The notes beneath the pieces are model-generated. The model did not search any database, had not been told where the DNA came from, and worked only from the letters and a program-made list of their open reading frames with translations. A stretch of 58,162 nt of DNA from a bacterium (lineage in GTDB: Bacteria > Patescibacteriota > Patescibacteriia > UBA2196), in the NCBI GenBank assembly GCA_035387885.1, contig DAOOOW010000004.1:1-58162 (forward strand), given 5' to 3'. Positions 227 to 55,867 of this stretch are shown one piece after another; within the stretch, counting starts at the first letter, position 1, and every line of letters begins with the position of its first letter. The position numbers and the translations under genes are program-made.

Positions 227-302
227 GAGCGGGTAACGGGAATCGCACCCCATTCAAAAGACACTTAGGTGTCTTTTGAACTCTACCTTGGCAAGGTAGC
301 AT
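227..302 (-). pseudogene. Partial copy of tRNA-Gly running from the anticodon arm to the acceptor 3' strand. A 28-nt hairpin replaces the variable loop. It has no 5' acceptor/D arm and no CCA.
   Basis: The blocks 227-250 and 281-302 are identical to 349-372 and 377-398 of the intact tRNA. A perfect 12-bp stem with a 4-nt loop lies at 253-280. Confidence 0.6.
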
Positions 303-6315: not shown

Positions 6316-6378
6316 AAACTTAAACTTTATAGCCTTAATTTAACATTTTTTAACTAAGAAGTAAAATTTTTTACTAAG

Positions 6379-6532
6379 CTCTGGGGGGAGGAATCGGTCA
6401 CAACTCTTACTCGCTTCCGCTTGTAAGGTTGCGACCCCGCCTCGCGGTCTGGCTCGCCATTATGCTCGCCAAACATCGCTCCGGCTTTCGAATCCTTGGC
6501 GCAAGCCAAGCAGTTGGCTTGCTCCCCTCTCA
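6379..6532. ncRNA. Unclassified GC-rich structured element, either a candidate ncRNA or a remnant of inserted DNA
   Basis: A ~150-nt G+C-rich patch in an AT-rich spacer holds several perfect hairpins (for example GCAAGCCAA-CTGC-TTGGCTTGC). No ORF is present. Its left end copies the 3' end of the adjacent tRNA-Asn. Confidence 0.35.
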
Positions 6533-6560: not shown

Positions 6561-6567
6561 TTATTTT

Positions 6568-6639
6568 CTCTGGGGGCAGGGATCGAACCTGCGACAGCCA
6601 CGTTAACAGCGTGGTGTTCTACCGCTGAACTACCCCAGA
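6568..6639 (-). tRNA. tRNA-Asn(GUU), copy 1
   Basis: The reverse complement reads TCTGGGG-TA-GTTCAGCGGTAGAAC-A-CCACG-CTGTTAA-CGTGG..GCAGG-TTCGATC-CCTGC-CCCCAGA-G. No CCA is encoded. Confidence 0.9.
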
Positions 6640-6825
6640 GATTAATAAAAAAGATTTAAAAAAACCGTCTTTATAAACGGCCTTTATGTTTCTTTTTAAT
6701 CTATTGAAAATCAGGCCGTTATTAAAAGCGGTTATTAGAATTATTATTTAAATTATTTTTCTGGCTGATTTGTTTCATAGATAAATATAGTTTATCAAGA
6801 AAAAATAAAAAAGTCAAATAAAAAT

Positions 6826-6874: not shown

Positions 6875-9568
6875 TTATTTCAAAAGTATCAGCCGTTTGA
6901 CACTTTTGAATTCCCCAGCGATCAATTCGCAAATATATTGACCACTGGGCATGCCCGTCGCATCCCAGACAACGCGATGCATGCCGGGCTGTTGTTGCCC
7001 ATTGGCGAGCGTGGCCACCTGCCGCCCCATAAGATCATAGACTGCCAGCCGCACCAATGATTCCTGCGGCAGCGCATATTCAATGGTGGTTTCGGCGTTG
7101 AACGGATTGGGATAGTTTTGATTCAGTTTGAATTGATCTGGCAACACTTCTGTCAACATCAATTCTTCGCTCACCGGCACAGCGCCAGTTTTGTCTTTGG
7201 TACTGACGCCGAATTCCACAATCTGTCGCCAGCCACCGCGCCCAAATTTAGGATCAACAATAACGAGTTTGATATACTTGGCCTGAAACATTTGGCCAAG
7301 ATTATACCAAGTCATTTCCGGATTTTTAACCCAAATATTTTTCGCCAACACAAAACTGCTGGCGCTGGTGTCTGTTTGCGACACTAGCACATCAACATAT
7401 TCTGCTTGACGATTTTTTACTTTGTCATCAGCCGTGCCATTATCGGTCTGGATGATGACATAATCGAACTGATAGGTACCCTGGTCGGCAAATTCAAATA
7501 TCGCCCAGGCATCTTCAGTCTGATCACCTTTTGGCTTAACCGTGGCCGTTCCATCCCAGCCTTCCAGATCTCCGTCCACGGCATTGGTCCAGTTTTGCTC
7601 GGAATTGCAGGGAGAGCCAGAGATAAAAACTAATGAATCTGATTTGATATCTTGCACGGCATCACAGGCATCGCCAGAAGGAATGGGAATTTGATCTTTT
7701 TGCTGGTTAAAAATATCAATCAGCTCAAATACCCAATCTGTGTACCATTCCGGATAGTTTGGAATGATATTAACATGCCCTTCAGAATCAAAACCCGGCA
7801 CACCAACAGCAAAACGGATCATTCTGGTGTATCTGTTTTTACTATTTATAACAAAAAGCATGCCTTCCGGTGCTGTAAAATCAAACACCACCGGCCTTGT
7901 TGGGCGATGATCTTTATCGTTTTCCCAACATGGTAATGCTTTGACTACCAGATTTCCACTACCACCCCAACGATTGTACCAGTCAGCGGTTGAACGAGTT
8001 TGTCCGTGGATATAATCACCCTGATTTTCACCCACATATTGACTGGTGAATGTGCCGTCACTGTTGAATGTTAGTTTATAATCACCAGTATTTGGAGCAA
8101 CTGGCAAATACAAATCTAACGTAGTGTTGATAACAAGTTGGTTGTCTTTTTTAAAGACACTCAGCACATTAAAATCGTCTGGATCACATTCTGTGAACTC
8201 TTTCGAGTTATACACAAAATGTTCCCCATTTAACAGGACGATCTGGCCCAACCCGCCAGAATTAACCCAGCCAACTGGCTGGTTTTCTTCAATAACGTTG
8301 ATCGTCGAAGCATTAATATACTTCAACTTGTTACGAAGATTGCCTTGTGCATCTCTCCAAGCGAGAATACCAGCGATTTTGGAATAGATCAGCTGGTCAA
8401 TATCGCTCGTGGCTACTATTCGAAAATTTTCCGGCACATCTGACGGGGGCACGCCCTCTTGATCATTAAGAAGCCAAACCTTAAAAAGTTCAACTTCTTT
8501 TTCATCTGGGCACTCTTTGATTATAAAAGAGTGCATGGCTTCGCCACTCTGTCCATCACTCGTGCGAAAATAGTTTTTAAAACTATATTCGCCTGGCTGA
8601 TCATAGGTCACGGTTGAGTCGACATCAAACATTTTGGGCAATTGATCAGTATAACAGACCTGGCCCAATAATGTTTCTTCTGACTGTCCTTCCCAACGAT
8701 GGTACACCTGTATGTAGCCATTTTCCACGACTGGAGCGGGCAAATCATATTCCTGTTCAAAACGAACTGATTGTCCTTCGCCATAATAGGCAACATCAAC
8801 CTTTTTTAATTTGGTCATACCTATCTGATAATTGAATTGGTAACCAAAATTATCAGACCAAGTTTGACCGCAGGCGATGGTCATACCATTAAAAGTCATT
8901 TGACCCAAAAGCTGCCAGACACCATTGATCTTGGCAAAAAGACTATCATAGACAACAAAAGCCATCGGTGGATATTCCCCACTACATTCACGGGTCACAA
9001 CCACTTGGCCGGAAACGTCGTATTTTAAAATACTCTGTCCAGCTGTGGTGTCGATGACCACCTGACCTTTTGCTTGGTAAGTTCCGGGACAACCTTCATC
9101 TTGGCTACCGGTTTTGTAGTCGGCCCAAGCAAAGGTTTTTTGCCCCAACCAATGATCGTCCTTGATGCTCACTGTAAATTTACCAGTAGGTGTGCAGATC
9201 ATACAAAATTCATAATGTGAGATCTGCGGAATATTGCCACCGAGATTAAGCGGACAGCGTAAACCAACATCACCGCTAGTCGGAGTGGTGTAGTTATAAA
9301 GAAAAGCGCTGGGACCGCCCTTCATTATAACCGTTCCCGCCAGAGGAACATCTGACGACCAATCAAGGTATTTTCCATCAATGGAAAGGGTGATAGTCAC
9401 CTTCGCCCCACATTCAAGAGTGACAACAGTTGAAATTGGCGGATCAATTTTGATTCCGCCACATTTGGGATTGCCACCCACGGAATCTGGGACAACCGAA
9501 GTAGCAAAAAGACTTGACGAAACAATTAGCATCAAAACCAAAACAATTAAAAATCTTTTCATGTTCAT
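6875..9568 (-). CDS. Large secreted protein with a discoidin/F5-8-type-C-like domain and a T9SS (Por) type C-terminal sorting domain. Its composition looks foreign.
   Basis: A signal peptide begins at MNMKRFLIVLVLMLIVSSSLFA, with AAGGA 9 nt upstream of that ATG. The C-terminus reads LNQNYPNPFNAETTIEY..LAVYDLMGRQV..GMH.VVWDA...PSGQY...L.AG.F...K.LLLK. G+C is markedly higher than in the flanks. Confidence 0.85.
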   Translation of the reverse strand: MNMKRFLIVLVLMLIVSSSLFATSVVPDSVGGNPKCGGIKIDPPISTVVTLECGAKVTITLSIDGKYLDWSSDVPLAGTVIMKGGPSAFLYNYTTPTSGDVGLRCPLNLGGNIPQISHYEFCMICTPTGKFTVSIKDDHWLGQKTFAWADYKTGSQDEGCPGTYQAKGQVVIDTTAGQSILKYDVSGQVVVTRECSGEYPPMAFVVYDSLFAKINGVWQLLGQMTFNGMTIACGQTWSDNFGYQFNYQIGMTKLKKVDVAYYGEGQSVRFEQEYDLPAPVVENGYIQVYHRWEGQSEETLLGQVCYTDQLPKMFDVDSTVTYDQPGEYSFKNYFRTSDGQSGEAMHSFIIKECPDEKEVELFKVWLLNDQEGVPPSDVPENFRIVATSDIDQLIYSKIAGILAWRDAQGNLRNKLKYINASTINVIEENQPVGWVNSGGLGQIVLLNGEHFVYNSKEFTECDPDDFNVLSVFKKDNQLVINTTLDLYLPVAPNTGDYKLTFNSDGTFTSQYVGENQGDYIHGQTRSTADWYNRWGGSGNLVVKALPCWENDKDHRPTRPVVFDFTAPEGMLFVINSKNRYTRMIRFAVGVPGFDSEGHVNIIPNYPEWYTDWVFELIDIFNQQKDQIPIPSGDACDAVQDIKSDSLVFISGSPCNSEQNWTNAVDGDLEGWDGTATVKPKGDQTEDAWAIFEFADQGTYQFDYVIIQTDNGTADDKVKNRQAEYVDVLVSQTDTSASSFVLAKNIWVKNPEMTWYNLGQMFQAKYIKLVIVDPKFGRGGWRQIVEFGVSTKDKTGAVPVSEELMLTEVLPDQFKLNQNYPNPFNAETTIEYALPQESLVRLAVYDLMGRQVATLANGQQQPGMHRVVWDATGMPSGQYICELIAGEFKSVKRLILLK

Positions 9569-24074: not shown

Positions 24075-25307
24075 CTATCCAAACATCAACCATTCTGGCT
24101 TAAATAATAAAAGTAAACCAATAATTAACATCAAAGCACCACCAATTAATTTTGAATAACGAGAGTATTTGGTGGTAATACCCGTCATCCGTAAAGTAGT
24201 CATGGCCACAAAAAAGACAAATAAATCATCTAGCATGAAAAAGAAAATATAAAGCAAAATATAAAGATAATATTGCCATTTGGCCAAATCACTTAAAGCC
24301 AACACCTGTGTATAGACCGCCGGTAATCCTGCCGAACAAATCAACTCAACTAAATTGACTGCAAAAGCCAAAAGAATAATGCCACCCAAAGCCAACCAGA
24401 AGCTATGCTGTCCAATTATCTTTTTTAATTTTTCAAAAACCTTCTGACGTTTTTCATCATTCGTAACCTTACAACCACTATTTTTATTAAATAAAAATTC
24501 CTTAATATTATACCCACCGCCAAATAAGGCTAGCCCGCCAATTATCACCCGTACCCAAACCACAAAACCTAAAAATAAAATCAAATTCAGCCAAGCGGCC
24601 ATAAAAACGAAATAAACCAAAGCCGAAATAATAATAAAAGCGGTGCCAAGTATCCACATTCTTTTTCTGTCTTGAATGCCCAAAAGTAAACTTATTAAAA
24701 ATAAAAGTGTCCACATGGCGCAAGGATTAAAACCATCTAAAGCTCCCATAGCAACGGTCAAAACAGGTAAAGAAATTTTTTTAATCTCAATATCACCCAA
24801 TAAAGGCAAATTAATTTTTTGTGGTAAGTGGTTGATATTTTCTTCTTGCTCACAGCTTTCTTCACTTAAATTACTATCAATCTGATTAACAATATTCTTA
24901 GGGTCTTGTATTTCTTTAACCACATCACGACAACTACTGACGATTGCTTGCTCAACCGCTTTAGTAATACCTAAGCCAGTAGTTTGTTCATCATACCAAC
25001 CAATAAAATAATTTTCTCCAACTAAAGTAAAAGGCACACCGGAAACATTAATATCTAATTTTTTACCAATAGCAATCAAGAGATTCAAACTGTCTTTATT
25101 TGAACTAATGTCAAAAGCCTGCAATTCAACAGCCGGATTTTGCTTGATTAAATTTTCCAGAAAAGGCCTCTCGCTAGCACAATGCGGACAACCTTGTTGC
25201 CAAAAAAAATAAATATTAATCTTGTTTTGTTCTTGCGCTTTTGCCACGTTTAAAAGCAAAAAACAAGAAAAAAATAAAATTAAAAAAAATAATAAAAATC
25301 TTTTCAT
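24075..25307 (-). CDS. Thioredoxin-fold domain fused to a DsbD_2/CcdA-like 6-TM thiol:disulfide electron-transfer membrane protein (copy A)
   Basis: It has a signal/TM segment, WQQGCPHCA (CxxC), and the TM motifs DGFNPCAMW and ELICSAGLPAVYT. The start is set at MKRFLLFF by analogy with paralog B; the ORF track extends to 25331. Confidence 0.8.
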   Translation of the reverse strand: MKRFLLFFLILFFSCFLLLNVAKAQEQNKINIYFFWQQGCPHCASERPFLENLIKQNPAVELQAFDISSNKDSLNLLIAIGKKLDINVSGVPFTLVGENYFIGWYDEQTTGLGITKAVEQAIVSSCRDVVKEIQDPKNIVNQIDSNLSEESCEQEENINHLPQKINLPLLGDIEIKKISLPVLTVAMGALDGFNPCAMWTLLFLISLLLGIQDRKRMWILGTAFIIISALVYFVFMAAWLNLILFLGFVVWVRVIIGGLALFGGGYNIKEFLFNKNSGCKVTNDEKRQKVFEKLKKIIGQHSFWLALGGIILLAFAVNLVELICSAGLPAVYTQVLALSDLAKWQYYLYILLYIFFFMLDDLFVFFVAMTTLRMTGITTKYSRYSKLIGGALMLIIGLLLLFKPEWLMFG

Positions 25308-25308
25308 A

Positions 25309-25578
25309 TCATTTAGCGCGATTTTGCTCAAGGATCTCTATAATTTTTTTCTTATCTATCTCGCCATTTAAACGCAAAAACTCTTTATCTTGATTGTCCA
25401 GAAAAATAAAGGTAGGCAAAGTCTTAGTAATTTTATATTTTTCCACCATTATTTTGTCATTATCAAAATCATAATACTCTGTTTTAAGCCAAGCATTTTC
25501 TTTTTCAATTTCCTGCCATCTGGGTTTCATAACCAAACACCCCGAACACCAGACAGCGCCAAATTTTAATACTTTCAT
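25309..25578 (-). CDS. Small thioredoxin-like protein
   Basis: 89 aa with KFGAVWCSGC (CxxC) and a Trx-fold length. Confidence 0.8.
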   Translation of the reverse strand: MKVLKFGAVWCSGCLVMKPRWQEIEKENAWLKTEYYDFDNDKIMVEKYKITKTLPTFIFLDNQDKEFLRLNGEIDKKKIIEILEQNRAK

Positions 25579-28984: not shown

Positions 28985-30226
28985 TTACCCGAACATTAAA
29001 ATTTCGGGTTTAAAAATTAATAATAATCCAATAATTAACATTAATATTCCACCAATTAAATATGACCATTTTGTATATTTAGAAGTTATGCCAGTTACTT
29101 TTAAAGTAATCATGGCTATTACAAAAACAATCAAATCATCAAGCATGAATATTAAAATATATAAAAAAATATATAAATAATACTGAAATTTAGACAAACC
29201 AGTTAAAGTTAAAATTTGTGTGTAAACTGCTGGTAATCCAGCTGAACAAATTAACTCTACTAAATTAACTGCAAAAGCTAATAATATTATTCCCACTAAT
29301 GCAATTCCAAAACTTTTTTGAGTAGTGATTTGTTTTAATTTAGCAAATATTTTTTGCTTCTTTTCTCCGCCAGTCACCTGACATACTCCTGCTTTGTTTA
29401 TAAAATATTCTTTCAGATTATGCCAGCTACATCCAAGTGCAACTATACCAATAATTATTCTAATCCAAAAAACAAAACCAAGAAATAATAACAGATCCAA
29501 CCAAGCTGACATGAAAATAAAATATACAGCAGAAGAAGCGACAATAAATACACTACCCAAAATCCACATTCTTTTTCTGTCTTGCATACCAAGCAATAAA
29601 GTAATTAAAAATAACAATACCCACATGGCACACGGATTAAAACCATCTAATGCCCCAAAAATTATAGTTAAAATTGGCAAGGAAAAATTCTTTACTTCAA
29701 TTTCACCAAATAATGGTAAATCTATTTTTTGAAAAGAATTATCATTATTCTCTTCTTGTCTACATTCATCTTGATTTAAAATATTATTATTTGTGGACGT
29801 AAGGCCAGATATATTGTTTGGATTATTAATTTCTTCAACCACATCTCGACAAACGCCAACCAAAGATTGCTTAAGTTCTTTTTCAATAGCGCTCCCTGTT
29901 GTTTCTTCACTATACCAACCAATAAAGTATTTTTCTCCAATTAAAGTAAACGGCACACCCTGAATATCTATATTTAATTTTTTACCAATATTAATTAATA
30001 AATTTAAACCTTCTTTGTCTGAACTAATATCAAAATCATATAATTCAACTTGTGAATTATTTTTAGCTAAATTTTCTAAAAATGGTTTTTCTTTAGCGCA
30101 ATGCGGACAACCTTGTTGCCAAAAAAAATAAATATTAATCTTGTTTTGTTCTTGCGCTTTTGCCACGTTTAAAAGCAAAAAACAAGAAAAAAATAAAATT
30201 AATAAAAAATATACAATTTTTTTCAT
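28985..30226 (-). CDS. Thioredoxin-fold domain fused to a DsbD_2/CcdA-like membrane protein (copy B)
   Basis: It has the same architecture and motifs as copy A, and the first ~104 nt are identical to copy A. Confidence 0.85.
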   Translation of the reverse strand: MKKIVYFLLILFFSCFLLLNVAKAQEQNKINIYFFWQQGCPHCAKEKPFLENLAKNNSQVELYDFDISSDKEGLNLLINIGKKLNIDIQGVPFTLIGEKYFIGWYSEETTGSAIEKELKQSLVGVCRDVVEEINNPNNISGLTSTNNNILNQDECRQEENNDNSFQKIDLPLFGEIEVKNFSLPILTIIFGALDGFNPCAMWVLLFLITLLLGMQDRKRMWILGSVFIVASSAVYFIFMSAWLDLLLFLGFVFWIRIIIGIVALGCSWHNLKEYFINKAGVCQVTGGEKKQKIFAKLKQITTQKSFGIALVGIILLAFAVNLVELICSAGLPAVYTQILTLTGLSKFQYYLYIFLYILIFMLDDLIVFVIAMITLKVTGITSKYTKWSYLIGGILMLIIGLLLIFKPEILMFG

Positions 30227-30239
30227 ACAATTATATTTT

Positions 30240-30975
30240 TTAAATTAATTTAACCAGCATCATAATAACAATGCCGACGATAAATATTAAAAATGTTGTA
30301 ATCGATCTTTTTATTTTTTCCTGCCTAATTATTTCGGGCATAAGATCAGAAGCAGCAATATAAATAAATCCACCAGCAGCAAAAGGCAATAAATAAGGAA
30401 TTATTTGATAAAGTGGTTGGGCAATAAAATAACCAACCACACCACCCAAAACAACCGTTAAAGCAACTAAATAATTAATTAATAATGCTTTTTTCTTTTC
30501 AAAACCAGCATAAATTAAAACCCCAAAATCGCCAATTTCTTGTGGTATCTCATGCAAAGCAATAGCTAATGTTGTTACTACACCAAGTTTAACATCTATA
30601 AAAAAAAATACTGGCAATCACAAGTCCATCAATAAAATTGTGTAAAGCATCACCCACTAAATTCATATAACCAAAAGTATGAACTTTACATTCACCCTTA
30701 TGGCAGTGTCGCCAATATAACACCTTTTCCATAAAAAAGAAAAAAATAAAAGCAATTAAAACAACTAAATATAAATTATCTGAATTAATTTTACTTGAAG
30801 CCTCGGGCAGTAAATGCAAAAAAGCACCACCCATTAAAGCTCCAGCTGATAGAGCCACTAAAAATAAAGCGATTTTATTAAGCAATTCTTTTTTTAAATA
30901 TAAAAAAATAACTGCTACCCAAACACAAAAAGTAATTAAAAAAGTAGCAATTATAATATTTAATAAAATATTCAT
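30240..30975 (-). pseudogene. ZIP-family (ZupT/GufA-like) metal transporter split by a frameshift in a 9-nt homopolymer
   Basis: The N-terminal ORF ends HNFIDGLVIASIFF. The C-terminal ORF continues IDVKLGVVTTLAIALHEIPQEIGDFG. Deleting one base from the A9 run at 30600-30608 restores a single ~245-aa ZIP protein. Confidence 0.8.
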
Positions 30976-35102: not shown

Positions 35103-35204
35103 ATATTTATATTATTTAGCTAATATATATTCTAATAATTAACGACCTTTCACTATTAATACAACTCAAAGGCGTCTTTTCTTTCATTTTTATATTTTAT
35201 TCAT

Positions 35205-35250
35205 AAATTAAAAATCCACCAGCATAAAGTTGATGAGTTTTTTAATTCTC
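35205..35250. repeat. Direct repeat copy 1; its partner is at 42228-42273
   Basis: The 37-nt core at 35214-35250 is identical to 42237-42273. It extends ~10 nt further with one indel. Confidence 0.9.
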
Positions 35251-35345
35251 CCAACCTCGGTCTAGTACTACCAGATTGGGGTCTTTTGGGGGTTCTTTGG
35301 GCGACTTGTACTGTGGTAAACAACGGGAACGGGTCGAGGTCTTTA
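35251..35345. other. G-tract-rich structured element adjacent to repeat copy 1
   Basis: A CCTCG...CGAGG closing stem and TACCA/TGGTA pairing are present. The TTGGGGTC TTTTGGGGGTTC TTTGGGCG tracts lie at 35276-35303. Confidence 0.3.
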
Positions 35346-35427: not shown

Positions 35428-36008
35428 TCACTTCTTCTCGCTGGCTTTTAAAAACAGCGAGGCCGATATTATAAACAATGTGGCGAAAAATCCGCTAAGG
35501 ACAAATACTCCGGGAACGCTGGGCGACCATGAGATAACGCTGGGGGGCCAAATAAAAAACGCAATCACAGGAACCAACATTTGAGCGAACGCTGTTATAT
35601 ACAACGCAATCGCCATTCCTTTCGGATTTAAGCGAGCGATAGAAACACCGCTAACGCCAATTAACAAGACTCCGCCATACAACAGATTAGCTGGGTTGTC
35701 TTCATTTCCGATAATACCAACAGCCCCGTTTATCCAAATAAGAAGCAAAGCTGTCGCTATTGCCACGCCCACCCCTGCTTTATAGGAAATATATCGCTGG
35801 ATCTTCTTGAAATCAATTCGTAAGCAATGCCCGAGCCAAATAAGAAAACACCGACCATAATAAAATCGCCTAAGCTCCAATCCCAGCCACCGCCTTGACC
35901 TCCGTTAATAGTCGCGTTTGGGTTTATCAAAGTTAATACCAAAGGTATCAAAAGTATAATTCCCGTTCCGATCGCAAAATAAATTATTCTTTTGTTTTTC
36001 TTCTCCAT
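35428..36008 (-). pseudogene. Multi-TM membrane protein gene split by a frameshift near 35790-35830
   Basis: The 83-aa and 150-aa ORFs overlap in different frames and read through as one ~200-aa hydrophobic protein. G+C is higher than in the neighbouring genes. Confidence 0.6.
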
Positions 36009-42129: not shown

Positions 42130-42227
42130 TTTTTCATAATTTAATTATAAATTTGGCTATTTTTTAATTGTTTTCCTAGCCCAAGACATGTTTGCCCAGC
42201 GCCAATATTATTATGAGTTTACTTAAA

Positions 42228-42273
42228 AATTAAAAAATCCACCAGCATAAAGTTGATGAGTTTTTTAATTCTC
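42228..42273. repeat. Direct repeat copy 2; it abuts and overlaps by 3 nt the 3' end of tRNA-Asn copy 2
   Basis: See the repeat at 35205-35250. Confidence 0.9.
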
Positions 42274-42342
42274 GGGGACAGGGATTCGAACCCTGGACCC
42301 ACTGGTTAACAGCCAGTTGCTCTACCACTGAGCTATCCCCGA
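42271..42342 (-). tRNA. tRNA-Asn(GUU), copy 2
   Basis: The reverse complement reads TCGGGGA-TA-GCTCAGTGGTAGAGC-A-ACTGG-CTGTTAA-CCAGT..CAGGG-TTCGAAT-CCCTG-TCCCCGA-G. Confidence 0.9.
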
Positions 42343-42378
42343 ATATATGGACAATAAAAAAAGAACGATTTTAATTAG

Positions 42379-42574
42379 ACGAGCATAGCGCAACTGGCTG
42401 AACAGCCGCCAGAAGTGACATTAAGTCACTTCTTGACCTCCACCGCTGTCTGTCCCGCTCAAAGTTCTTGGTAACACTTAAATATCGTAGGACGAGAGCC
42501 GTAGGCGCTTCCTTGCCACCAATCTCTCACCGTTAATTTCGTCTCTAAACTTTGGGCGGGGAGCTATCCCCGAA
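42379..42574. ncRNA. Unclassified GC-rich structured element between rpoD and tRNA-Asn
   Basis: A ~200-nt G+C-rich patch holds perfect hairpins (AGAAGTGAC-ATTAA-GTCACTTCT; CGGGGA-TAGC-TCCCCG). No ORF is present. It is bracketed by a 14-nt direct repeat of the tRNA 5' end. Confidence 0.35.
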
Positions 42575-46003: not shown

Positions 46004-46191
46004 GAATTTCGAGTTGCCTGGTGGGCCCTGTAGGGACAGGTTTCAAACCTGTCCCTACGAACACAAAACAAATTTTATCTATCTTAATTTATACCACCAA
46101 AAAAGAAATTTATCCAGCATTAACTTTTTGCCTGTTTTGACTTTAATCAAAACAAAAAATAAAGCAAAAAGTTAGTGCTGGAAATAAAAAG

Positions 46192-47113: not shown

Positions 47114-47142
47114 TTGACAGCATTTTTTATAACCTATATAAT
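47114..47142 (+). promoter_or_regulatory. Consensus sigma-70 promoter of the 16S rRNA transcription unit
   Basis: It reads TTGACA, a 17-nt spacer, then TATAAT, about 200 nt upstream of the processing stem. Confidence 0.65.
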
Positions 47143-47344: not shown

Positions 47345-47366
47345 ACAATTAAAATGTGGTAGGAAA
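47345..47366 (+). promoter_or_regulatory. 5' half of the pre-16S processing stem
   Basis: These 22 nt are perfectly complementary to 49149-49170. Confidence 0.8.
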
Positions 47367-47537: not shown

Positions 47538-49054
<1,517 letters not shown>

Positions 49055-49148: not shown

Positions 49149-49170
49149 TTTCCTACCACATTTTAATTGT
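49149..49170 (+). promoter_or_regulatory. 3' half of the pre-16S processing stem
   Basis: Complementary to 47345-47366. Confidence 0.8.
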
Positions 49171-49220
49171 GAAATAAAAATCTTGAATATTTTTCTAATT
49201 AAATAAGACTTCTCGAATAA

Positions 49221-49256
49221 CAAAAAATCTCCTTATAGGGAGATTTTTTGGTGCGC
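49221..49256. repeat. Direct repeat copy 1: a terminator hairpin plus 8 nt identical to the tRNA-Ile 3' end. It also serves as a bidirectional terminator between the 16S and the giant gene.
   Basis: 33 of 36 nt are identical to 54556-54591, and all mismatches fall in the hairpin loop. It ends GGTGCGC, the reverse complement of GCGCACC(A). Confidence 0.85.
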
Positions 49257-49367
49257 TTTTTGGGAAAAAACTGTTATTCTTTCCTGTTATTTTATCATCT
49301 TTTGCAACTAATTCATCATGACCGACGTTTACATTTCCAATGTCTATTACATAGGCACCTTACCAGT

Positions 49368-52300
49368 CTATATTTTCTCTATTATGCAGAATCCATCGAA
49401 AAATTCCCATGCTGGTTGTGCAACGTTATTTAATCCTCCAAAAGAATCATAATATTTTGTCAGTCTAACATTACTTTCATTCACGAAATACTCCTCTGAT
49501 ATCTTTCTTAATTTGTATCCCCGCGCCCGAAGTACTTCTTGAACATCTGAGTTTACAGCAAATCTATTGCTATCAAAAACCAGTGATAATTCTGGATCAG
49601 CTGATAATCTATCAAGCATATGCAACATCATTTCATTAGAGAATTGATAAGTAAAATTTTGATATTGTGGGTTTACATATTGCCTATCAATCAAAACTGC
49701 CAATCTTGCCTGATCTTCTCCCGTAAGCTTCACCTTAGATAACTCAATAAAACTTCTACTTAATCTATTTTTCTCGCCATTTCTCATCTCATAAATATCT
49801 ATCATTTCATTAGAGCCATCTAATAAACGAGAGTAGGCAGCATGATTAAGACCTGTTACTTCTGTCAACCTCTGGCAGCTTTGAGTCATCTCGGGTGCTT
49901 TTGCAAGATCGTTGAAATTAACTGTGGATTCTGTTTCGAAAACTATTTGTCCTGACGCATTTTCCTCCGCCATTGCGCCTTTTAATTTACCAAAATCTAG
50001 CAAAACCTCTTCTTCAAGTGCTCTAGTATTTACATCTGTTGATCTGCTATCAGGGTCTAGTATTTTTAATCGTTTCAAAGCTCCCGAGAACTCGCCAATA
50101 TGTTTTTCAATTTCTTTTAGATAGTTTCTTCTGGCTTCATATCTTTTTTCACTAATTGTTCCTAATCTATACAAAGCTTTTAGGCTGTCTGATACTGCTT
50201 CGTATGTTCCGAGAATCTTGCCCAATTTCCCCTTTTCTTCCTTTGGTGTTTCTGGATTTTTAAGAGCTTCTTGGGCATTACGGATAAACTTCTCAACTGA
50301 ACGATACATCATTAGAATATCTTTTCGCATTAATCCTTCAGGAGTCATCAAATATTTTTTATATATAGCAAATTGTTCAGCTCTTGACCCATTAGTTTCT
50401 TCTCTCTCAATTGCTGCCTCTAGTTCTTTTACTTTTGTTATAAAAAGTTCTTGAAGATGTACTGAAAGATCTGTATGTAAAATATCTCTAATTCTATTGA
50501 GGCGGCTTAATGTAGCTTCCTCTACTGTAATTACATCGCCACTTACTCTTAATCTTCGTCTTGGTGATAAATCAAGCCAAATCTTCATCACTCTTTCTCT
50601 TGCATCATCTGGCATACCTTCAAAGATTCGATCAAACTGATGAGATGAAAGTTCTGCTCTCTTTTGCGCATAAACTTTGGGATTACGTTCTAAATTTAAT
50701 TCAAGTGACTGTCTAATGGCGCCCATTAAAATATCGAAATCTTGTCCTTTGTTGGAATATTTCTGTCCAAAAACTCCAACAGAACGACATGCGATCTCAA
50801 GTATATCATCAAACTCTTTCTCTTTACCCGCAAGCTCAATTAATTTATTCTTTTTTGCGTCCAATTCTTCGTCTTGTAATCCAGAGTAAACCACTGGAAT
50901 TGCAAGATCAATCATCATGCTTGTCATTGCCTCATTAGCCTCTTGGAAATTATTTGTTTGAAGTAATGGACCGTACCAATCTACATTTTGCGCAACTCTT
51001 GCTATTTCTGCAGTTATACCATATTTCAAAGCTATTCTATCTAGTTCTGTTGCTTTTCCTGAAACTGAAAATATTTTAACTAATACTTCTTCAGGAATCG
51101 CTTCACTTAACATTCTATTGTTAAATTGCGCCAATCGGTTTTGTGCATCCCTTATATTTCTAAAATAAACATCTGAGAGAAATTTTCTTGCGTGGTTATA
51201 AAGTCCTGCATCTGCTCTTAAAGCAACAAACAATTTAAAATTATTTTCTTGCATTAAATCTTCTTTTACTATTGAAGCTCTAGCTTCTCTCAATTTATCT
51301 TCAATGTCTGGAATTTGTGCCAACTTTACATAATACTGGGAAATGTTAGGGTTATAAGCAAAAGAAAAATTATCTCGTAAAATATCTAACGTTTGTAATA
51401 TAACTTCCTTGTTAGGGGATTCTAAAAGACTTCGCAATTGTGGCGCATGTTGTAGGCGAAATTTATAGTTGTAACTTTCCAATCGAGCAATTGTATCTTC
51501 ATTATCTTGAATAAATTCTAAATTTCGAATTGAATTAATATTACACTCATCTGAATCTTGATCTTTATATTTATCATGAATCTGCTTCAAACCCGCTAAT
51601 TGTTCTTTTGTATATCCACCTGCAATAATAAATGCTAACTGATCACTATCTCTAACATTAAACTTGTATTCCATTACTTCACCTAAAGTAGTAACAATTG
51701 CAGGCAACCTATCAATAAATGCTTCAAGCTGTAATAGATATGGTATGTCCCACACATTGAAAACATACTGTTCAGCCACCTTAGAACCTTCCAAATAAAT
51801 TTCTTCACTCGACAAAATTTGATTAACAGTAGAGAAAAGAATAGGTAACTTTTGGGCATATGGAATTAATTGTGAAATATATGTGATATCTTCAATTCCG
51901 AACTGATATCCATGATTACATAACATATCTAAAAGATCATTAAACCCTTCTTTATTTGCTGCGAGTTGGAGTAACGGCATTAAGTCCTTGCTTTTAAAAC
52001 TATATCTATATTTCTTTTCCAATTCTCCAATAAAATCAGGAAAATCACTAGGCGCACGCACAATAGTATCAATATCACGTATTTCGAGCCGATAATAACC
52101 AAAATCTGTCTTAAGCCTATTAAAAACCCCCTGCGTTTGCTTAGAAAACAACTTTCTTCTCAAATTATCATTTTGTACTAATCTATCAAGCATTTCTTGT
52201 TGTTCTGTACTTCTCAAAAAAGAAAAATCAAGAGAAAAACTAAATTGGCCTACCAACTTTACAATTAAGTCTCGACGAGCAGAATCTAAATCCAAGATCG

Positions 52301-54272
52301 ATCTCACATCAGAGAGAGCTAATCCGTGTGGTCGAACTTTCTTTATATAATCCACATTTTCAGGGTTAAATAACTTTTGTTGCAACCCCTTATCATCATA
52401 TAATGCGAGTAAGTTGCTTGTTTCAGAGTGACTTGCTACCCACTTAAATTCTTTAGTTAATCGAATAGCAAGACTTTTTAATTCTGGAGATTTTAACTTA
52501 GTAATAGCACTAGGATCGTTTGCAATCGCTTCTAAAGTCTCTGCGCTTGGTAAACTAAAATAATCAAACAATTTGCAACCCATATCGCGTAAAGCATTAA
52601 TAGTTTGTACCATATTTGGATTATTGCCCAGTCGGATATAATACTCTGGGTTATGTAGATTTATTTGACCACCGAGTGCCTTTATAACTTTAGTTGTAGC
52701 ATCCTGAACTAGACCAGCACGGACTGTTGGGTTATTAAACACCTCTGCTAATATGCTCGAACCCTGAAAGTAAATGTCATCTTTACTAGGTCTATATCCG
52801 GCCCTAGATTCAAGAGCTTCCACAAACTTTGGAAATTCCTCATTAGTAAATGCTTCCATGACGCGAGCATCTGAAGTAACAGCGGAAAGAGTATTCAAAT
52901 CAAGATTGTATTCCTGGCCATCTTGATTACTTCCCCGTAAGCATTTCAATACAACTATTGCCTCTTCTCCCCTTGCCAAGCCTTCTCCAAACATTTTATC
53001 AAGACTTGAAAGTTCCTCCACAATTAAGGGATAACCTCTTAACTCTCCCAATAATCTAACAAATTCTCGTCTTGGAGCATCATTTAAAAATGCTTTTACT
53101 TTGGGTTGAGCTAATATTTCTTGTAAATATTGCACTACTTCTCGTCTTACTTCTTGCGGTTTAGATGTGGCCTCGTAGCTATCAAATAGTTTCCTTAATG
53201 ATGGGTGACTAAATAAATAATAATATCTATCTGTAGATTCTAAAGAAACACCAGAACGATATAGTTCAACTACCGGTTTCAGCAAACCAGCTTGATCCAG
53301 AGCTATGATATTTTCAAAGACAGGTATTCTTTCTCTATAACTTGAATCTGAACCGCCTAGATTATTTAAATATGCAACAAATTCTAAATAATCTGGATTA
53401 TTCATAATTGTCTGAAGTTGGCCAATTTCTGCAACTCCTACTCTCATATTTAATGCAGCAGCCAATGTATTTACTCTTTTTATTACTTCAAGTGGAAATA
53501 CTGTTTTTGGATCAGGATTTTGCGCGAGTTTAGCTAGAAATTCTATTTGCCCAACCTCAACAGTTTTGCCATATGAACCATCGTTTGCAAACCAATCACT
53601 ACCCCATCTAGAAATATCTTGCGCAAGTTCCAGTGCTTCTTTTGCATGAGGTGCTGTAAAAAATTTACCCAATTGTCTCATCTCATCGGGAGACTTTAAC
53701 ATAAAGTCACTAAACTCGAAACCAATTTTTCGCAATCCTTCAGCCAATTCTCTGGGGTTATTATCAACAGAGACTAAGTCTTTCATTAACCTGACATGCT
53801 CCCTTCCAAGGCGCAAAGGTACACTTCTTGTTAAAGTTAGACCTGCGTACTTACTATCTGTATTTTCGTAAAAATCGTCTACTTCACCATTCCATCCTTT
53901 TGCTTTCCAATCTTCGATAACTTTCTTTTTTTGCTCATCAGATAATCCAATTGGGACATTAACATCCTTACTTTCCCTTTCATAAACAGTTGACTCCAAA
54001 TAATCAGCTAATTCTTGAAAACGATCTAAATTTCTCATTCCTTCAATACGAGCTTGCATAAATAAAGTTTGTCTGTGGATTTTATCCATTATTAAGCGAG
54101 GTGTTATTGGTCGTTCTTCTTCTTGAAGATGAGGGTTTTTTCTATTTGCAGCTGCTTTTTCTATTTTACTCCATACATTTTGATCTAGTAAGGTTTTTAT
54201 CCCCTGACTTTCTATTATCGTTACTTTTTTAACAGGTAACACTTCCCTTAGTTTTTGTTCACATATATTCAT
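49368..54272 (-). CDS. Giant (1634 aa) repeat-rich, predicted alpha-helical cytoplasmic protein of unknown function
   Basis: It is an uninterrupted ORF with no signal peptide or TM segment. Degenerate ~60-90-aa modules recur, each containing an N[ND]P.. motif. Confidence 0.85.
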   Translation of the reverse strand: MNICEQKLREVLPVKKVTIIESQGIKTLLDQNVWSKIEKAAANRKNPHLQEEERPITPRLIMDKIHRQTLFMQARIEGMRNLDRFQELADYLESTVYERESKDVNVPIGLSDEQKKKVIEDWKAKGWNGEVDDFYENTDSKYAGLTLTRSVPLRLGREHVRLMKDLVSVDNNPRELAEGLRKIGFEFSDFMLKSPDEMRQLGKFFTAPHAKEALELAQDISRWGSDWFANDGSYGKTVEVGQIEFLAKLAQNPDPKTVFPLEVIKRVNTLAAALNMRVGVAEIGQLQTIMNNPDYLEFVAYLNNLGGSDSSYRERIPVFENIIALDQAGLLKPVVELYRSGVSLESTDRYYYLFSHPSLRKLFDSYEATSKPQEVRREVVQYLQEILAQPKVKAFLNDAPRREFVRLLGELRGYPLIVEELSSLDKMFGEGLARGEEAIVVLKCLRGSNQDGQEYNLDLNTLSAVTSDARVMEAFTNEEFPKFVEALESRAGYRPSKDDIYFQGSSILAEVFNNPTVRAGLVQDATTKVIKALGGQINLHNPEYYIRLGNNPNMVQTINALRDMGCKLFDYFSLPSAETLEAIANDPSAITKLKSPELKSLAIRLTKEFKWVASHSETSNLLALYDDKGLQQKLFNPENVDYIKKVRPHGLALSDVRSILDLDSARRDLIVKLVGQFSFSLDFSFLRSTEQQEMLDRLVQNDNLRRKLFSKQTQGVFNRLKTDFGYYRLEIRDIDTIVRAPSDFPDFIGELEKKYRYSFKSKDLMPLLQLAANKEGFNDLLDMLCNHGYQFGIEDITYISQLIPYAQKLPILFSTVNQILSSEEIYLEGSKVAEQYVFNVWDIPYLLQLEAFIDRLPAIVTTLGEVMEYKFNVRDSDQLAFIIAGGYTKEQLAGLKQIHDKYKDQDSDECNINSIRNLEFIQDNEDTIARLESYNYKFRLQHAPQLRSLLESPNKEVILQTLDILRDNFSFAYNPNISQYYVKLAQIPDIEDKLREARASIVKEDLMQENNFKLFVALRADAGLYNHARKFLSDVYFRNIRDAQNRLAQFNNRMLSEAIPEEVLVKIFSVSGKATELDRIALKYGITAEIARVAQNVDWYGPLLQTNNFQEANEAMTSMMIDLAIPVVYSGLQDEELDAKKNKLIELAGKEKEFDDILEIACRSVGVFGQKYSNKGQDFDILMGAIRQSLELNLERNPKVYAQKRAELSSHQFDRIFEGMPDDARERVMKIWLDLSPRRRLRVSGDVITVEEATLSRLNRIRDILHTDLSVHLQELFITKVKELEAAIEREETNGSRAEQFAIYKKYLMTPEGLMRKDILMMYRSVEKFIRNAQEALKNPETPKEEKGKLGKILGTYEAVSDSLKALYRLGTISEKRYEARRNYLKEIEKHIGEFSGALKRLKILDPDSRSTDVNTRALEEEVLLDFGKLKGAMAEENASGQIVFETESTVNFNDLAKAPEMTQSCQRLTEVTGLNHAAYSRLLDGSNEMIDIYEMRNGEKNRLSRSFIELSKVKLTGEDQARLAVLIDRQYVNPQYQNFTYQFSNEMMLHMLDRLSADPELSLVFDSNRFAVNSDVQEVLRARGYKLRKISEEYFVNESNVRLTKYYDSFGGLNNVAQPAWEFFDGFCIIEKI

Positions 54273-54555
54273 AGATTTATACTTCTTTATTTTTTAAAAA
54301 TTTAATTTTGTATAGATTCTCAACAAAATCAGCCCCAGAGTAATTCACCAAGAAAAAATTGCCATTCAACATCAGCTAATGCTCCAGTTGCAACACAGAT
54401 AACTCCAGAATTTAGGATAATTACAACAAAAAACACGAGAACTTGAAGTGATCAATTTTTTCAATAATATCTCAATTTTATTATACATTTTTTTATTGAT
54501 TTTTAGAAGGTCAACTTTTTTTAAAATAAGTTTTGATTTGGTTTAATAAATGCAC

Positions 54556-54591
54556 CAAAAAATCTCCCTCAAGGGAGATTTTTTGGTGCGC
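54556..54591. repeat. Direct repeat copy 2: the tRNA-Ile 3' end plus its terminator hairpin
   Basis: See 49221-49256. Here the stem extends to a 17-bp palindrome, GCACCAAAAAATCTCCC/GGGAGATTTTTTGGTGC. Confidence 0.85.
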
Positions 54592-54660
54592 GTACATGGG
54601 CTCGAACCATGGACCTCGACATTATCAGTGTCGCGCTCTAACCAGCTGAGCTATACGCGC
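54584..54660 (-). tRNA. tRNA-Ile(GAU)
   Basis: The reverse complement reads GCGCGTA-TA-GCTCAGCTGGTTAGAGC-G-CGACA-CTGATAA-TGTCG..CATGG-TTCGAGC-CCATG-TACGCGC-A-CCA. Confidence 0.9.
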
Positions 54661-54671
54661 TAAATAAATTT

Positions 54672-54748
54672 TGGTGGGCGACACAGGAATTGAACCTGTG
54701 ACCTTTACAATGTCAATGTAACGCTCTAACCAACTGAGCTAGCCGCCC
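54672..54748 (-). tRNA. tRNA-Val(GAC)
   Basis: The reverse complement reads GGGCGGC-TA-GCTCAGTTGGTTAGAGC-G-TTACA-TTGACAT-TGTAA..CAGGT-TCAATTC-CTGT-GTCGCCC-A-CCA. Confidence 0.9.
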
Positions 54749-54871: not shown

Positions 54872-55867
54872 ATGCCTGAAGAAAGACTTATCTCCAACAT
54901 TGCTAGAGATGAAGATCAAAAAATTGATCTAACTTTACGTCCGCAAAATTTAGATGATTTTATTGGTCAAAACAAGATTAAGCAAGGTTTAAAAATTTTC
55001 ATGCAAGCTGCTAAAAATCGTGGCGAAGCTTTAGAACATACTTTATTATACGGCTCACCAGGACTCGGCAAAACCACTCTGGCTCATATTATTGCCAAAG
55101 AAATGAACGCCAACATCCGAGTAACTTCTGGTCCGGCCATTGAAAGAGCTGGTGACTTGGCAGCAATCTTAACTAACTTAGAAGCTAATAATATTTTATT
55201 TATTGATGAAATTCACCGTTTAAATAAAACTATTGAAGAAGTCCTCTACCCAGCTATGGAAGATTATGCTCTAGATTTAATTATTGGCAAAGGACCCTCA
55301 GCTCGAACTTTAAGAATTGATTTGCCCAAATTTACTCTCATTGGCGCCACCACCCGTTTAAGTTTGCTGTCTTCACCGCTCCGCGATCGCTTTGGCACCA
55401 CCTATCGTTTGGATTATTACAATTTTGAAGAAATGGGTCAAATTATTAGTCGCTCAGCTAAAATTTTAAATTGCCAAATAGATTCAACCTCAGCCGAAAA
55501 AATTGCTACGCGTAGTCGTAAAACTCCTCGCATTGCTAATCGTCTCTTAAAAAGAGTTAGAGATTTTGCTGAAGTCAAACAAAATGGTATAATTGATGAG
55601 AATACTTGTGAAGAAACATTTAAAATGCTAATGGTTGATGAATTGGGTCTGGACGAAATTGATCGTGAAATTTTAAAAATTATTATCGAAAAATTTAATG
55701 GCGGTCCAGTTGGTTTAAATACTATTGCTGCTTCCACTGGCGAAGAAATGTCTACTATTGAAGATATTTATGAACCTTTTCTAATGCAACTCGGTTTTTT
55801 AGACAGAACCCCGAGAGGAAGAAGTGTCACAGATTTGGGCAAAAAACACTTAGGATACACAAAATAA
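54872..55867 (+). CDS. ruvB: Holliday junction branch migration DNA helicase RuvB
   Basis: Motifs present: LRP..LD.FIGQ, Walker [12 protein letters not shown]-like ([11 protein letters not shown]), [15 protein letters not shown] and PLRDRFG. Confidence 0.95.

Follow-up and report, generated by a model that had tools for sequence, protein, structure and literature searches.

The 58-kb window analysed here, that is the whole stretch of 58,162 nucleotides (nt) taken from contig DAOOOW010000004.1, belongs to a low-G+C (about 34%) member of the Patescibacteria, whose nearest named relatives as judged by RuvB are Candidatus Kuenenbacteria. Within it a 16S rRNA gene and a giant gene for a protein of 1634 amino acids (aa) run towards each other, and behind the giant gene lie the genes for tRNA-Ile(GAU) and tRNA-Val(GAC) and then ruvB (Table 1). 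The interval holding the giant gene is bracketed by two copies of a 36-nt sequence. The right copy, T(R), reaches into the tRNA-Ile gene at its 3' end and the left copy, T(L), is placed after the 16S rRNA gene. The locus has the look of a scar from a single old insertion beside a tRNA gene rather than of a mobile element that is active or of a new kind.

The repeat pair and the interval it encloses

The repeat has the form CAAAAAATCTCC-N5-GGGAGATTTTTTGGTGCGC. When the coordinates and identity of the copies were measured afresh they agreed with those of the original prediction, with 33 of 36 positions identical and all three mismatches located in the loop of a hairpin (TTATA versus CTCAA). Because tRNA-Ile lies on the minus strand at the position given in Table 1, the right copy includes the last eight nucleotides of the tRNA gene (GCGCACCA), which comprise GCGC, the discriminator A and CCA, whilst the other 28 nt of the repeat are downstream terminator. 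Placement by ARAGORN and Rfam bears out the claim that the terminal GGTGCGC of this copy is the true 3' end of tRNA-Ile. The left copy carries the same eight bases with no tRNA attached, as had also been reported, and a comparison of the flanks found no similarity beyond the 36-mer on either side and no tRNA remnant past the left GGTGCGC or in the 3' tail of the giant gene. The description of the copies as direct repeats has to be qualified. The repeat itself is real, but as its core is a palindrome the two copies also align in inverted orientation over 34 nt, and the direct orientation hangs on the last two nucleotides (GC versus AT).

The pair lies far beyond what chance would produce, and the palindromic core found no match in 100 dinucleotide shuffles. 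A chance or convergent likeness between two independent terminators could appeal to the fact that terminators consisting of an A-tract, a TCC... segment and a T-tract are common in this genome, but such an origin would have to deliver both the 33/36 match that the shuffles never gave and a GC-rich, non-palindromic extension of 7 nt, GGTGCGC, for which the base composition here gives a chance of about 1e-5. It is effectively refuted. GGTGCGC occurs three times in the window, twice as part of the 36-mer. Nor is the 36-mer a generic terminator found at many loci, an eventuality that the original prediction had allowed for. It is unique to this pair in the window and absent from the other 185 fetched loci (same-strain contigs apart) and from IMG/VR, and among the fetched loci its hairpin was met outside the window only in three contigs of the same strain. 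All perfect hairpins in the window with a stem of at least 9 bp were inventoried, and every other site had a different sequence; several terminators in the window open with AAAAATCC.

The interval consists of the giant open reading frame (ORF), a 3' tail of 111 nt and an upstream region that was measured at 283 nt, and it is correct that nothing else is held there. A Pfam scan of the giant ORF and about 48 ORFs of the window, amounting to nearly all of those with at least 100 aa and several shorter ones, returned no integrase, transposase or other recombinase domain, in line with the original prediction. The native-like composition of the cassette is likewise confirmed, with a G+C content of 0.348 for the giant gene and with codon usage and G+C at third codon positions (GC3) inside the range of the other genes in the window.

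The giant protein is mostly alpha-helical and its function is unassigned. It has no match in Pfam, NCBIfam, PHROGs or PADLOC, no sequence match to chains in the PDB and no relatives in IMG/VR. Conservation is highest in the C-terminal third. In an AlphaFold2 model, the C-terminal 635 aa fold for the most part into helices and finish in a small alpha/beta part, with a predicted local distance difference test score (pLDDT) of 64; no fold match was obtained at E < 0.08, and hints of a GNAT-like fold were unreliable. The idea that the protein serves as its own recombinase was rejected on the lack of a domain or PDB match and on this low-confidence model without a fold match, and a phage- or plasmid-like origin was set aside since IMG/VR contains no relatives and neither PHROGs nor PADLOC gave a match. 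The family is rare. Fifteen other relatives were found in an index of 5.8 billion proteins and an exhaustive profile search of 1.84 billion gave 25 representatives, with identities of 25 to 75% and with almost all full-length members close to 1600 aa.

Table 1. Positions and strands of the features discussed, with the basis of each assignment
Feature	Position	Strand	Basis or remark
16S promoter-like TTGACA-17-TATAAT	47114-47142		motif match
16S rRNA gene	47538-49054	+	Rfam SSU_rRNA_bacteria, 1384 bits; convergent with giant gene
16S processing stem, 3' strand	49149-49170	+	perfect 22-bp pairing with leader 47345-47366
Decayed remnant of ancestral 16S terminator	49176-49203	+	16S trailer alignment of window, L176 and L187
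Left repeat copy, T(L)	49221-49256	both	hairpin 49221-49250 (12-13-bp stem, 6-nt loop), then GTGCGC
Giant gene 3' untranslated tail, 111 nt	49257-49367	-	unlike tRNA or other flanks
Giant ORF, 1634 aa	49368-54272	-	rare family restricted to Patescibacteria
Giant gene upstream region, 283 nt	54273-54555	-	weak promoter-like matches (TTGACC at 54514-54509)
Right repeat copy, T(R)	54552-54591		17-bp perfect stem with 4-nt loop at 54552-54589; repeat register 54556-54591
tRNA-Ile(GAU), CCA encoded	54584-54660	-	ARAGORN and Rfam, 70.9 bits; abuts T(R)
tRNA-Val(GAC)	54672-54748	-	ARAGORN and Rfam; 11 nt upstream of tRNA-Ile
tRNA-Val promoter-like TTGCCA-17-TATAAT	54816-54788	-	same promoter form in L176
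ruvB, synteny anchor	54872-55867	+	Pfam RuvB_N, AAA_lid_4 and RuvB_C; divergent from tRNA unit
Second terminator repeat, distal copy	35195-35250		50/56 identical to 42218-42273
Second terminator repeat, proximal copy	42218-42273		overlaps 3' end of tRNA-Asn (42270-42343, -) by 4 nt; fold -14.1 kcal/mol, z = -3.0

The two copies as predicted terminators

By the criteria of hairpin, U-tract and placement both copies are predicted to be hairpins of the intrinsic (Rho-independent) terminator type. T(R) folds with -29.1 kcal/mol (z = -7.3), is followed by a U-rich tail past tRNA-Ile on the transcribed strand and is the predicted terminator of the tRNA-Val/Ile unit. T(L) folds with -20.9 kcal/mol on the plus strand and -16.7 kcal/mol on the minus strand (z = -4.3 and -3.7, respectively) and has U-tracts on both strands. 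Its placement, after the 16S processing stem in one direction and after the giant ORF in the other, marks it as a predicted bidirectional terminator that would serve 16S on the plus strand and the giant gene on the minus strand. As the 3' strand of the processing stem pairs with the leader, the 16S transcript must extend beyond 49170, and the first terminator in its path is T(L), which is also the first hairpin past the giant ORF. The left GGTGCGC was considered as a part of the 16S processing helix, which is ruled out since that stem lies upstream of T(L). On the other side of the 16S gene, between dnaG and the 16S leader, a long hairpin at 46109-46186 is miRNA-like in Rfam on both strands, below the gathering threshold, and a perfect 13-bp stem lies near it at 46030-46058.

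The trailer of the 16S gene was aligned with those of two relatives, L176 and L187. Relative to both, the window has lost the two stem arms of the ancestral 16S terminator, of which a remnant is left, and T(L) lies about 17 nt past it. T(L) is thus not the 16S terminator by descent, given that the remnant of the ancestral one precedes it. It is a terminator of the tRNA-Ile type, together with a tRNA end, that sits beside an old chromosomal flank, and its position is the one in which a displaced attachment (att) fragment would sit after insertion at the tRNA 3' end.

T(R) has a history of its own. The outer arm of its stem is the 3' end of tRNA-Ile itself, and it makes a perfect 17-bp palindrome because GCACC is also found on the far side of the hairpin. 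This extension is missing from the tRNA-Ile terminators of L176 and L187. Template switching at quasipalindromes is known to create and perfect hairpins, with palindromes acting as hotspots (PMC8794818, PMC7202029), and T(R) was probably perfected to its present form in this way.

The main rival to an insertion draws on the same process and involves no mobile DNA. The giant gene, or a slot for it, would already have lain between 16S and tRNA-Ile, and template switching or short-tract gene conversion between the nearby palindromic terminators with their A/T-rich flanks would have pasted the tRNA-Ile terminator plus seven flanking nucleotides beside the 16S terminator, with selection for termination then keeping both stems. 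Several features of the locus are in keeping with such copying in situ. The palindromes are the expected hotspots, the GCACC of T(R) that the other terminators lack attests to an event of this kind, differences confined to the loop are expected under selection on the stem, and the common AAAAATCC start of the terminators supplies microhomology; the recombinase is missing, and the composition is native. The place of T(L) is harder to reconcile with it, since a site about 17 nt past the 16S terminator remnant requires a new 36-nt piece 5.3 kb away from its source, and the copied tract stops exactly at the tRNA side, like an att fragment. It also leaves unexplained why syntenic relatives have the slot without the gene and why homologues are found elsewhere. 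We regard copying in situ as unlikely.

A further possibility is suggested by the hairpins themselves. Read from the palindromic cores inward, both ends of the cassette open with GGTGC and make up a formal 17-bp perfect terminal inverted repeat (GGGAGATTTTTTGGTGC ... GCACCAAAAAATCTCCC), and both are stable hairpins. The giant gene could accordingly be the cargo of a transposable unit that targets hairpins and inserted in the loop of the tRNA-Ile terminator, or of a hairpin-bounded unit moved in trans as with IS200/IS605, integron attC or REP/RAYT elements. For this to hold, the terminal repeats must coincide with the 12-nt arms of the targeted hairpin and, in addition, with the tRNA end, whereas direct repeats require only that a palindrome be extended by 4-5 nt, and the terminal-inverted-repeat reading is judged the less parsimonious of the two. 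The loop halves, TTATA and CTCAA, give no target duplication. The window has no gene for TnpA, TnpB, IntI or RAYT, there is no attC core of the GTTRRRY type, and no other copy of the ends was seen in the 185 other fetched loci or in IMG/VR. A transposable unit of this sort is highly improbable.

Relatives, homologues and other tRNA genes

The relative L187 (RuvB 77% identical, 722-kb contig) keeps the synteny of the window and lacks the giant gene. The order is tRNA-Asn(-), GIY-YIG, RpoD(-), DnaG(-), 16S(+), a terminator T1, a 118-aa ORF(-), a terminator T2, tRNA-Ile(-), GIY-YIG, tRNA-Val(-), RuvB(+) and bPH. The 118-aa ORF that occupies the slot in L187 and L188 is unrelated to the giant gene, and T1 and T2, of which the latter abuts tRNA-Ile, are unrelated to each other. 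In L176 (RuvB 83%), 16S(+) with a terminator of its own is followed by tRNA-Val(+) and tRNA-Ile(+), and these by a different terminator, two small ORFs and RuvB, again with no giant gene. The original prediction had considered that all relatives might carry the gene at this position, which L187/L188 and L176 show not to be so. Its proposed empty site was found in one respect only: the gene is missing in these syntenic relatives, but none of the relatives read has an exact site with the same hairpin in single copy. In the closer relative L175 (RuvB 91%) the contig stops within a 5' fragment of tRNA-Ile, short of the giant-gene site, and the contigs of relatives with 90% identity in DnaG stop before 16S. 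Scans anchored on RuvB in GTDB genomes and JGI metagenomes yielded no tRNA-Val/Ile beside ruvB among the matches listed, which were at most 70% identical.

Two observations concern the 16S genes themselves. That of L176 contains a group I intron at 6978-7242 (Rfam, 65.5 bits), which the window's 16S does not have. Between the window and L012/L013 all 25 differences fall within 90 nt of the 16S gene (48460-48552) and the sequences are otherwise identical; the cluster probably arose because one of the assemblies is a chimera with sequence from a related organism.

The Val-Ile module of L176 is inverted relative to that of the window, being co-oriented with 16S there and convergent with it in L187 and the window, and this difference between relatives implies that the module has moved or been inverted within the clade. 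On this basis a relocation in two steps can be envisaged, where tRNA-Ile once stood at T(L), the module of tRNA-Val, tRNA-Ile and terminator was duplicated past a giant gene already in place, and deletion then left only the last eight nucleotides of the old copy. Such a course takes two events and a deletion that stopped exactly 8 nt from the end of the tRNA, a tRNA remnant past GGTGCGC is missing, and it does not explain why the giant gene is absent from the slot in L187. Its probability is very small.

Homologues of the giant gene with 41-75% identity stand alone at five unrelated loci. One lies between LytR and a Big_13/PilO/PilN/S20 block, one inside the dcw (division and cell wall) cluster between an FtsQ-like gene and FtsA, one after SecA, one among PIN-toxin genes and one next to a response regulator. 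The original prediction had looked to other tRNA loci as further homes of the gene, an expectation that failed, as none of the five has a tRNA or rRNA nearby. Flanking direct repeats of at least 11 nt are not present at any of them either. The notion that conserved flanks move together with the gene was also discarded, since the regions up- and downstream of the homologues are unlike those in the window. No homologue of more than 75% identity occurs in any sample, though close relatives (91% in RuvB and 90% in DnaG) were sampled in seven runs.

In L187 two free-standing GIY-YIG genes (85-90 aa) are associated with direct repeats. One, beside tRNA-Asn, has repeats at 1683-1731/2056-2104 (49 nt, 98%) and the other, between tRNA-Ile and tRNA-Val, at 9369-9404/9778-9813 (36 nt, 89%). 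These genes lend some substance to the idea of break repair, in which a double-strand break at an extruded hairpin, or one made by a homing endonuclease beside the tRNA, captured foreign or ectopic DNA and the fill-in of staggered ends gave a 36-nt target duplication. The 49-nt repeat takes in the first 19 nt of tRNA-Asn, and tRNA 5' fragments followed by CCCGCCC-type inserts recur in the window, L175 and L187. What the giant cassette itself offers fits less well, for no endonuclease gene or remnant is found in or beside it, a stagger of 36 nt would be unusually long, and the repeats known to be linked to GIY-YIG genes take the 5' part of a tRNA, not a 3' end and terminator. An origin by break repair is improbable. 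The 5' fragments are each broken after AGCTC and followed by the G+C-rich insert; they lie upstream of tRNA-Asn in the window (42554-42573, minus strand), at the expected position of tRNA-Ile in L175 (1-46) and beside the GIY-YIG gene in L187 (1975-2104). This suggests an insert that targets the D-loop, or a homing cassette that duplicates the 5' part of the tRNA.

The original prediction saw the same pattern of tRNA-end repeats at three other tRNAs in the window. This stands for tRNA-Asn(42270-42343), where a terminator repeat of 56 nt (50/56) overlaps the last 4 nt of the tRNA gene and recurs about 7 kb downstream; it is of the same design as the tRNA-Ile repeat. It does not hold for tRNA-Gly and tRNA-Asn(6567), which instead have displaced fragments of the tRNA body 44-190 nt downstream, of the kind left as a classical integrase scar with little or no remaining cargo. 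The four tRNA cases are hence not one uniform pattern. Together, however, the displaced fragments and the tRNA-Asn(42270) repeat indicate that the 3' flanks of tRNA genes in this lineage have been recombination hot-spots, recombined repeatedly.

Between the repeats at tRNA-Asn(42270) lie about 7 kb that hold six ORFs, only one of them with a Pfam match (DUF2807). Synteny with L186 and L187 breaks at this tRNA, so that the distal side has no comparison. Within the block, the ORF at 35428-35880 has a G+C content of 0.45 compared with about 0.33, and a G+C-rich element beside the distal repeat (35247-35345) was rejected as a structured RNA (z = -0.3, not significant) and as a tRNA fragment. Beside tRNA-Gly (345-419), a pseudo-tRNA-Gly at 228-300 (minus strand) lies 44 nt downstream. 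Its anticodon arm is identical to that of the tRNA, as is its T arm together with the 3' strand of the acceptor, with a 26-nt hairpin inserted between these two parts, and the 5' acceptor and D arm are lacking. Directly after the terminator of tRNA-Asn(6567-6640) comes a G+C-rich element of 150 nt (6378-6527, minus strand), which has a very stable fold (-73 kcal/mol, z = -6.0) closed by a GGGG/CCCC stem. The 3' end of this element resembles the T-arm and acceptor end of tRNA-Asn (18/22) and it has no Rfam match; it could be a tRNA-like RNA or a decayed att fragment.

Two features elsewhere in the window may be recorded here. A ZIP zinc-transporter gene at 30240-30975 (minus strand) is split into overlapping ORFs, an N-terminal one at 30589-30975 and a C-terminal one at 30240-30617, which is a probable frameshift or pseudogene. 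In addition, two blocks of about 300 nt (24538-25191 versus 29448-30110), some 4.9 kb apart, are 72-73% identical and sit in paralogous genes (24075-25331 and 28985-30226), both without a Pfam match.

A proposed insertion at the tRNA-Ile 3' end and comparable systems

The best reading of the locus, which we hold with about even confidence, is that a lineage-specific insertion took place at the 3' end of tRNA-Ile and left the tRNA end and its terminator in two copies. The repeat takes in the last 8 nt of tRNA-Ile and extends outward from there; the tRNA is complete at one border of the interval, and the other border has a displaced piece of it. The missing giant gene in the syntenic L187/L188 and L176 and the place of T(L) beyond the decayed 16S terminator remnant point to an insertion as well. 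The spread of homologues over unrelated loci, with nothing closer than 75% in spite of the 90-91% relatives that were sampled, is consistent with a lineage-specific occupant of the site, and the uniqueness of the 36-mer to this pair and the repeatedly recombined tRNA 3' flanks add to the case.

The ancestor would have had 16S convergent with a unit of tRNA-Val followed by tRNA-Ile, with one or more terminators between them, and a hairpin with A/U-rich flanks abutting the CCA end of tRNA-Ile would have served as a terminator. A single recombination event may then have placed the giant gene, together with an upstream region and a 3' tail belonging to it, at the point where the hairpin meets the tRNA-Ile 3' end. 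The 36-nt site, composed of the last eight nucleotides of the tRNA and the hairpin, would have been brought by the incoming DNA or copied in the event, and the insert would thereby have become bracketed by two direct copies, as with the attL and attR of elements that target tRNA genes. The duplication would thus date from the insertion, and the event was presumably site-specific. The copy next to the tRNA would now end the tRNA unit, and the distal copy would end both the giant gene and 16S, the older terminator of which decayed. The recombinase would have acted in trans or been lost, making the structure equivalent to a relic and not an autonomous element.

Several points weigh against an insertion of this type. 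Among those already described are the lack of any recombinase domain in the interval or the window, a cassette made up of one gene of native G+C and codon usage, the lack of an exact empty site, and homologues with neither tRNA or rRNA neighbours nor flanking repeats. L187 carries a different small gene in the slot, and all of the same-species contigs represent one strain. Only eight nucleotides of the repeat are tRNA, and the remainder, a terminator palindrome, could be copied by other means. Finally, the GIY-YIG genes of L187 lie at the same tRNAs within direct repeats of 36-49 nt and have no integrase, from which it follows that integrase-independent routes exist.

What remains of the original prediction is therefore uneven. 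The locus is best explained by insertion at the tRNA-Ile 3' end, with a lineage-specific occupant and a left repeat that would be the displaced tRNA end plus terminator, but it lacks the exact empty site. The copies resemble an attL/attR pair in their arrangement, but mobilisation through them finds no backing in a recombinase in the window, a homologue with flanking repeats, a second instance of the 36-mer or any sign of present mobility. A bolder proposal would be that terminator hairpins abutting tRNA genes are recombination sites that a recombinase encoded elsewhere reads in the form of a palindrome or of a folded hairpin, shuttling cassettes of a single promoter-bearing orphan gene in and out of tRNA 3' flanks; the tRNA-Ile cassette and the 7-kb block at tRNA-Asn(42270) would be two instances. 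This is quite improbable, and the present evidence reveals no new mobility mechanism. Were the insertion at tRNA-Ile true, however, tRNA 3' flanks would allow the gene content of very small, recombination-poor genomes to be remodelled, and the sole scar of such cassettes would be a duplicated terminator, one that was put to use at once in ending the new gene and the 16S transcript. A rare family of proteins of about 1600 residues would, moreover, be flagged as relocatable cargo.

Amongst known systems, integron cassettes with their attC sites and the XerCD-dependent integrative mobile elements exploiting Xer (IMEX) are similar in that imperfect-palindrome sites bracket the cargo and the recombinase is encoded elsewhere. 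Unlike the promoterless integron cassettes, the giant gene has a 283-nt upstream region behind a terminator of -29 kcal/mol, and neither repeat has R''/L''-L'/R' boxes or GTTRRRY, nor is there an IntI. Identity with dif or attC was ruled out by inspection, the likeness to dif being only the coincidental GGTGCGC. The locus differs from transposons with hairpin ends of the IS200/IS605 type in having no transposase domain and in ends that are unique and not multicopy.

Template-switch correction of quasipalindromes explains the 17-bp palindrome of T(R) with its inverted copy of GCACC, and could in principle copy a hairpin sequence. The documented events, however, take place within one inverted repeat over tens of bases (PMC8794818, PMC7202029) and are not known to paste 36 nt at a distance of 5.3 kb. 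The GIY-YIG cassettes of L187 share with the giant cassette a single-gene insert at the same tRNAs, direct repeats of 36-49 nt that can include a tRNA end, and the lack of an integrase. They differ in that the giant cassette has no endonuclease and that its repeats consist of a tRNA 3' end and terminator instead of a 5' part.

Islands that tyrosine integrases have placed in tRNA genes bear the Islander signature, in which one end has the complete tRNA and the other a displaced copy, in direct orientation, of the 3' part (PMC4383910). The giant gene similarly lies downstream of an intact tRNA-Ile, with a putative displaced copy of the 3' end, 8 nt long and in an orientation that hangs on 2 nt, at the far side, and is absent from the same site in a syntenic relative. 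Unlike such islands, it has no integrase gene, its repeat is made of 8 nt of tRNA and 28 nt of terminator, and it is a single gene of native composition. With no integrase or transposase, native composition and only eight nucleotides of tRNA, the locus is not assigned to the tRNA-island family and only works like a relic of it. In the scheme of Williams from 2002, integration at the extreme 3' end of a tRNA gene is reportedly classed as 'sublocation III', and the geometry here fits that class.

A functional parallel is with the cis-mobilisable elements (CIMEs), relics of integrative elements that have kept attL and attR and lost the genes for integration and transfer (PMC6323972). As with a CIME, the cassette is bracketed by repeats, has no recombinase of its own and would need one in trans in order to move. 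CIMEs are, however, defined by a known parent integrative and conjugative element (ICE) and its integrase in Firmicutes, whereas the giant cassette has no known parent element, integrase or further att-bearing element and its repeats are putative att sites. By analogy, the locus resembles an integrase-less, CIME-like islet in a tRNA flank, the repeats of which are mainly the terminator of the tRNA.

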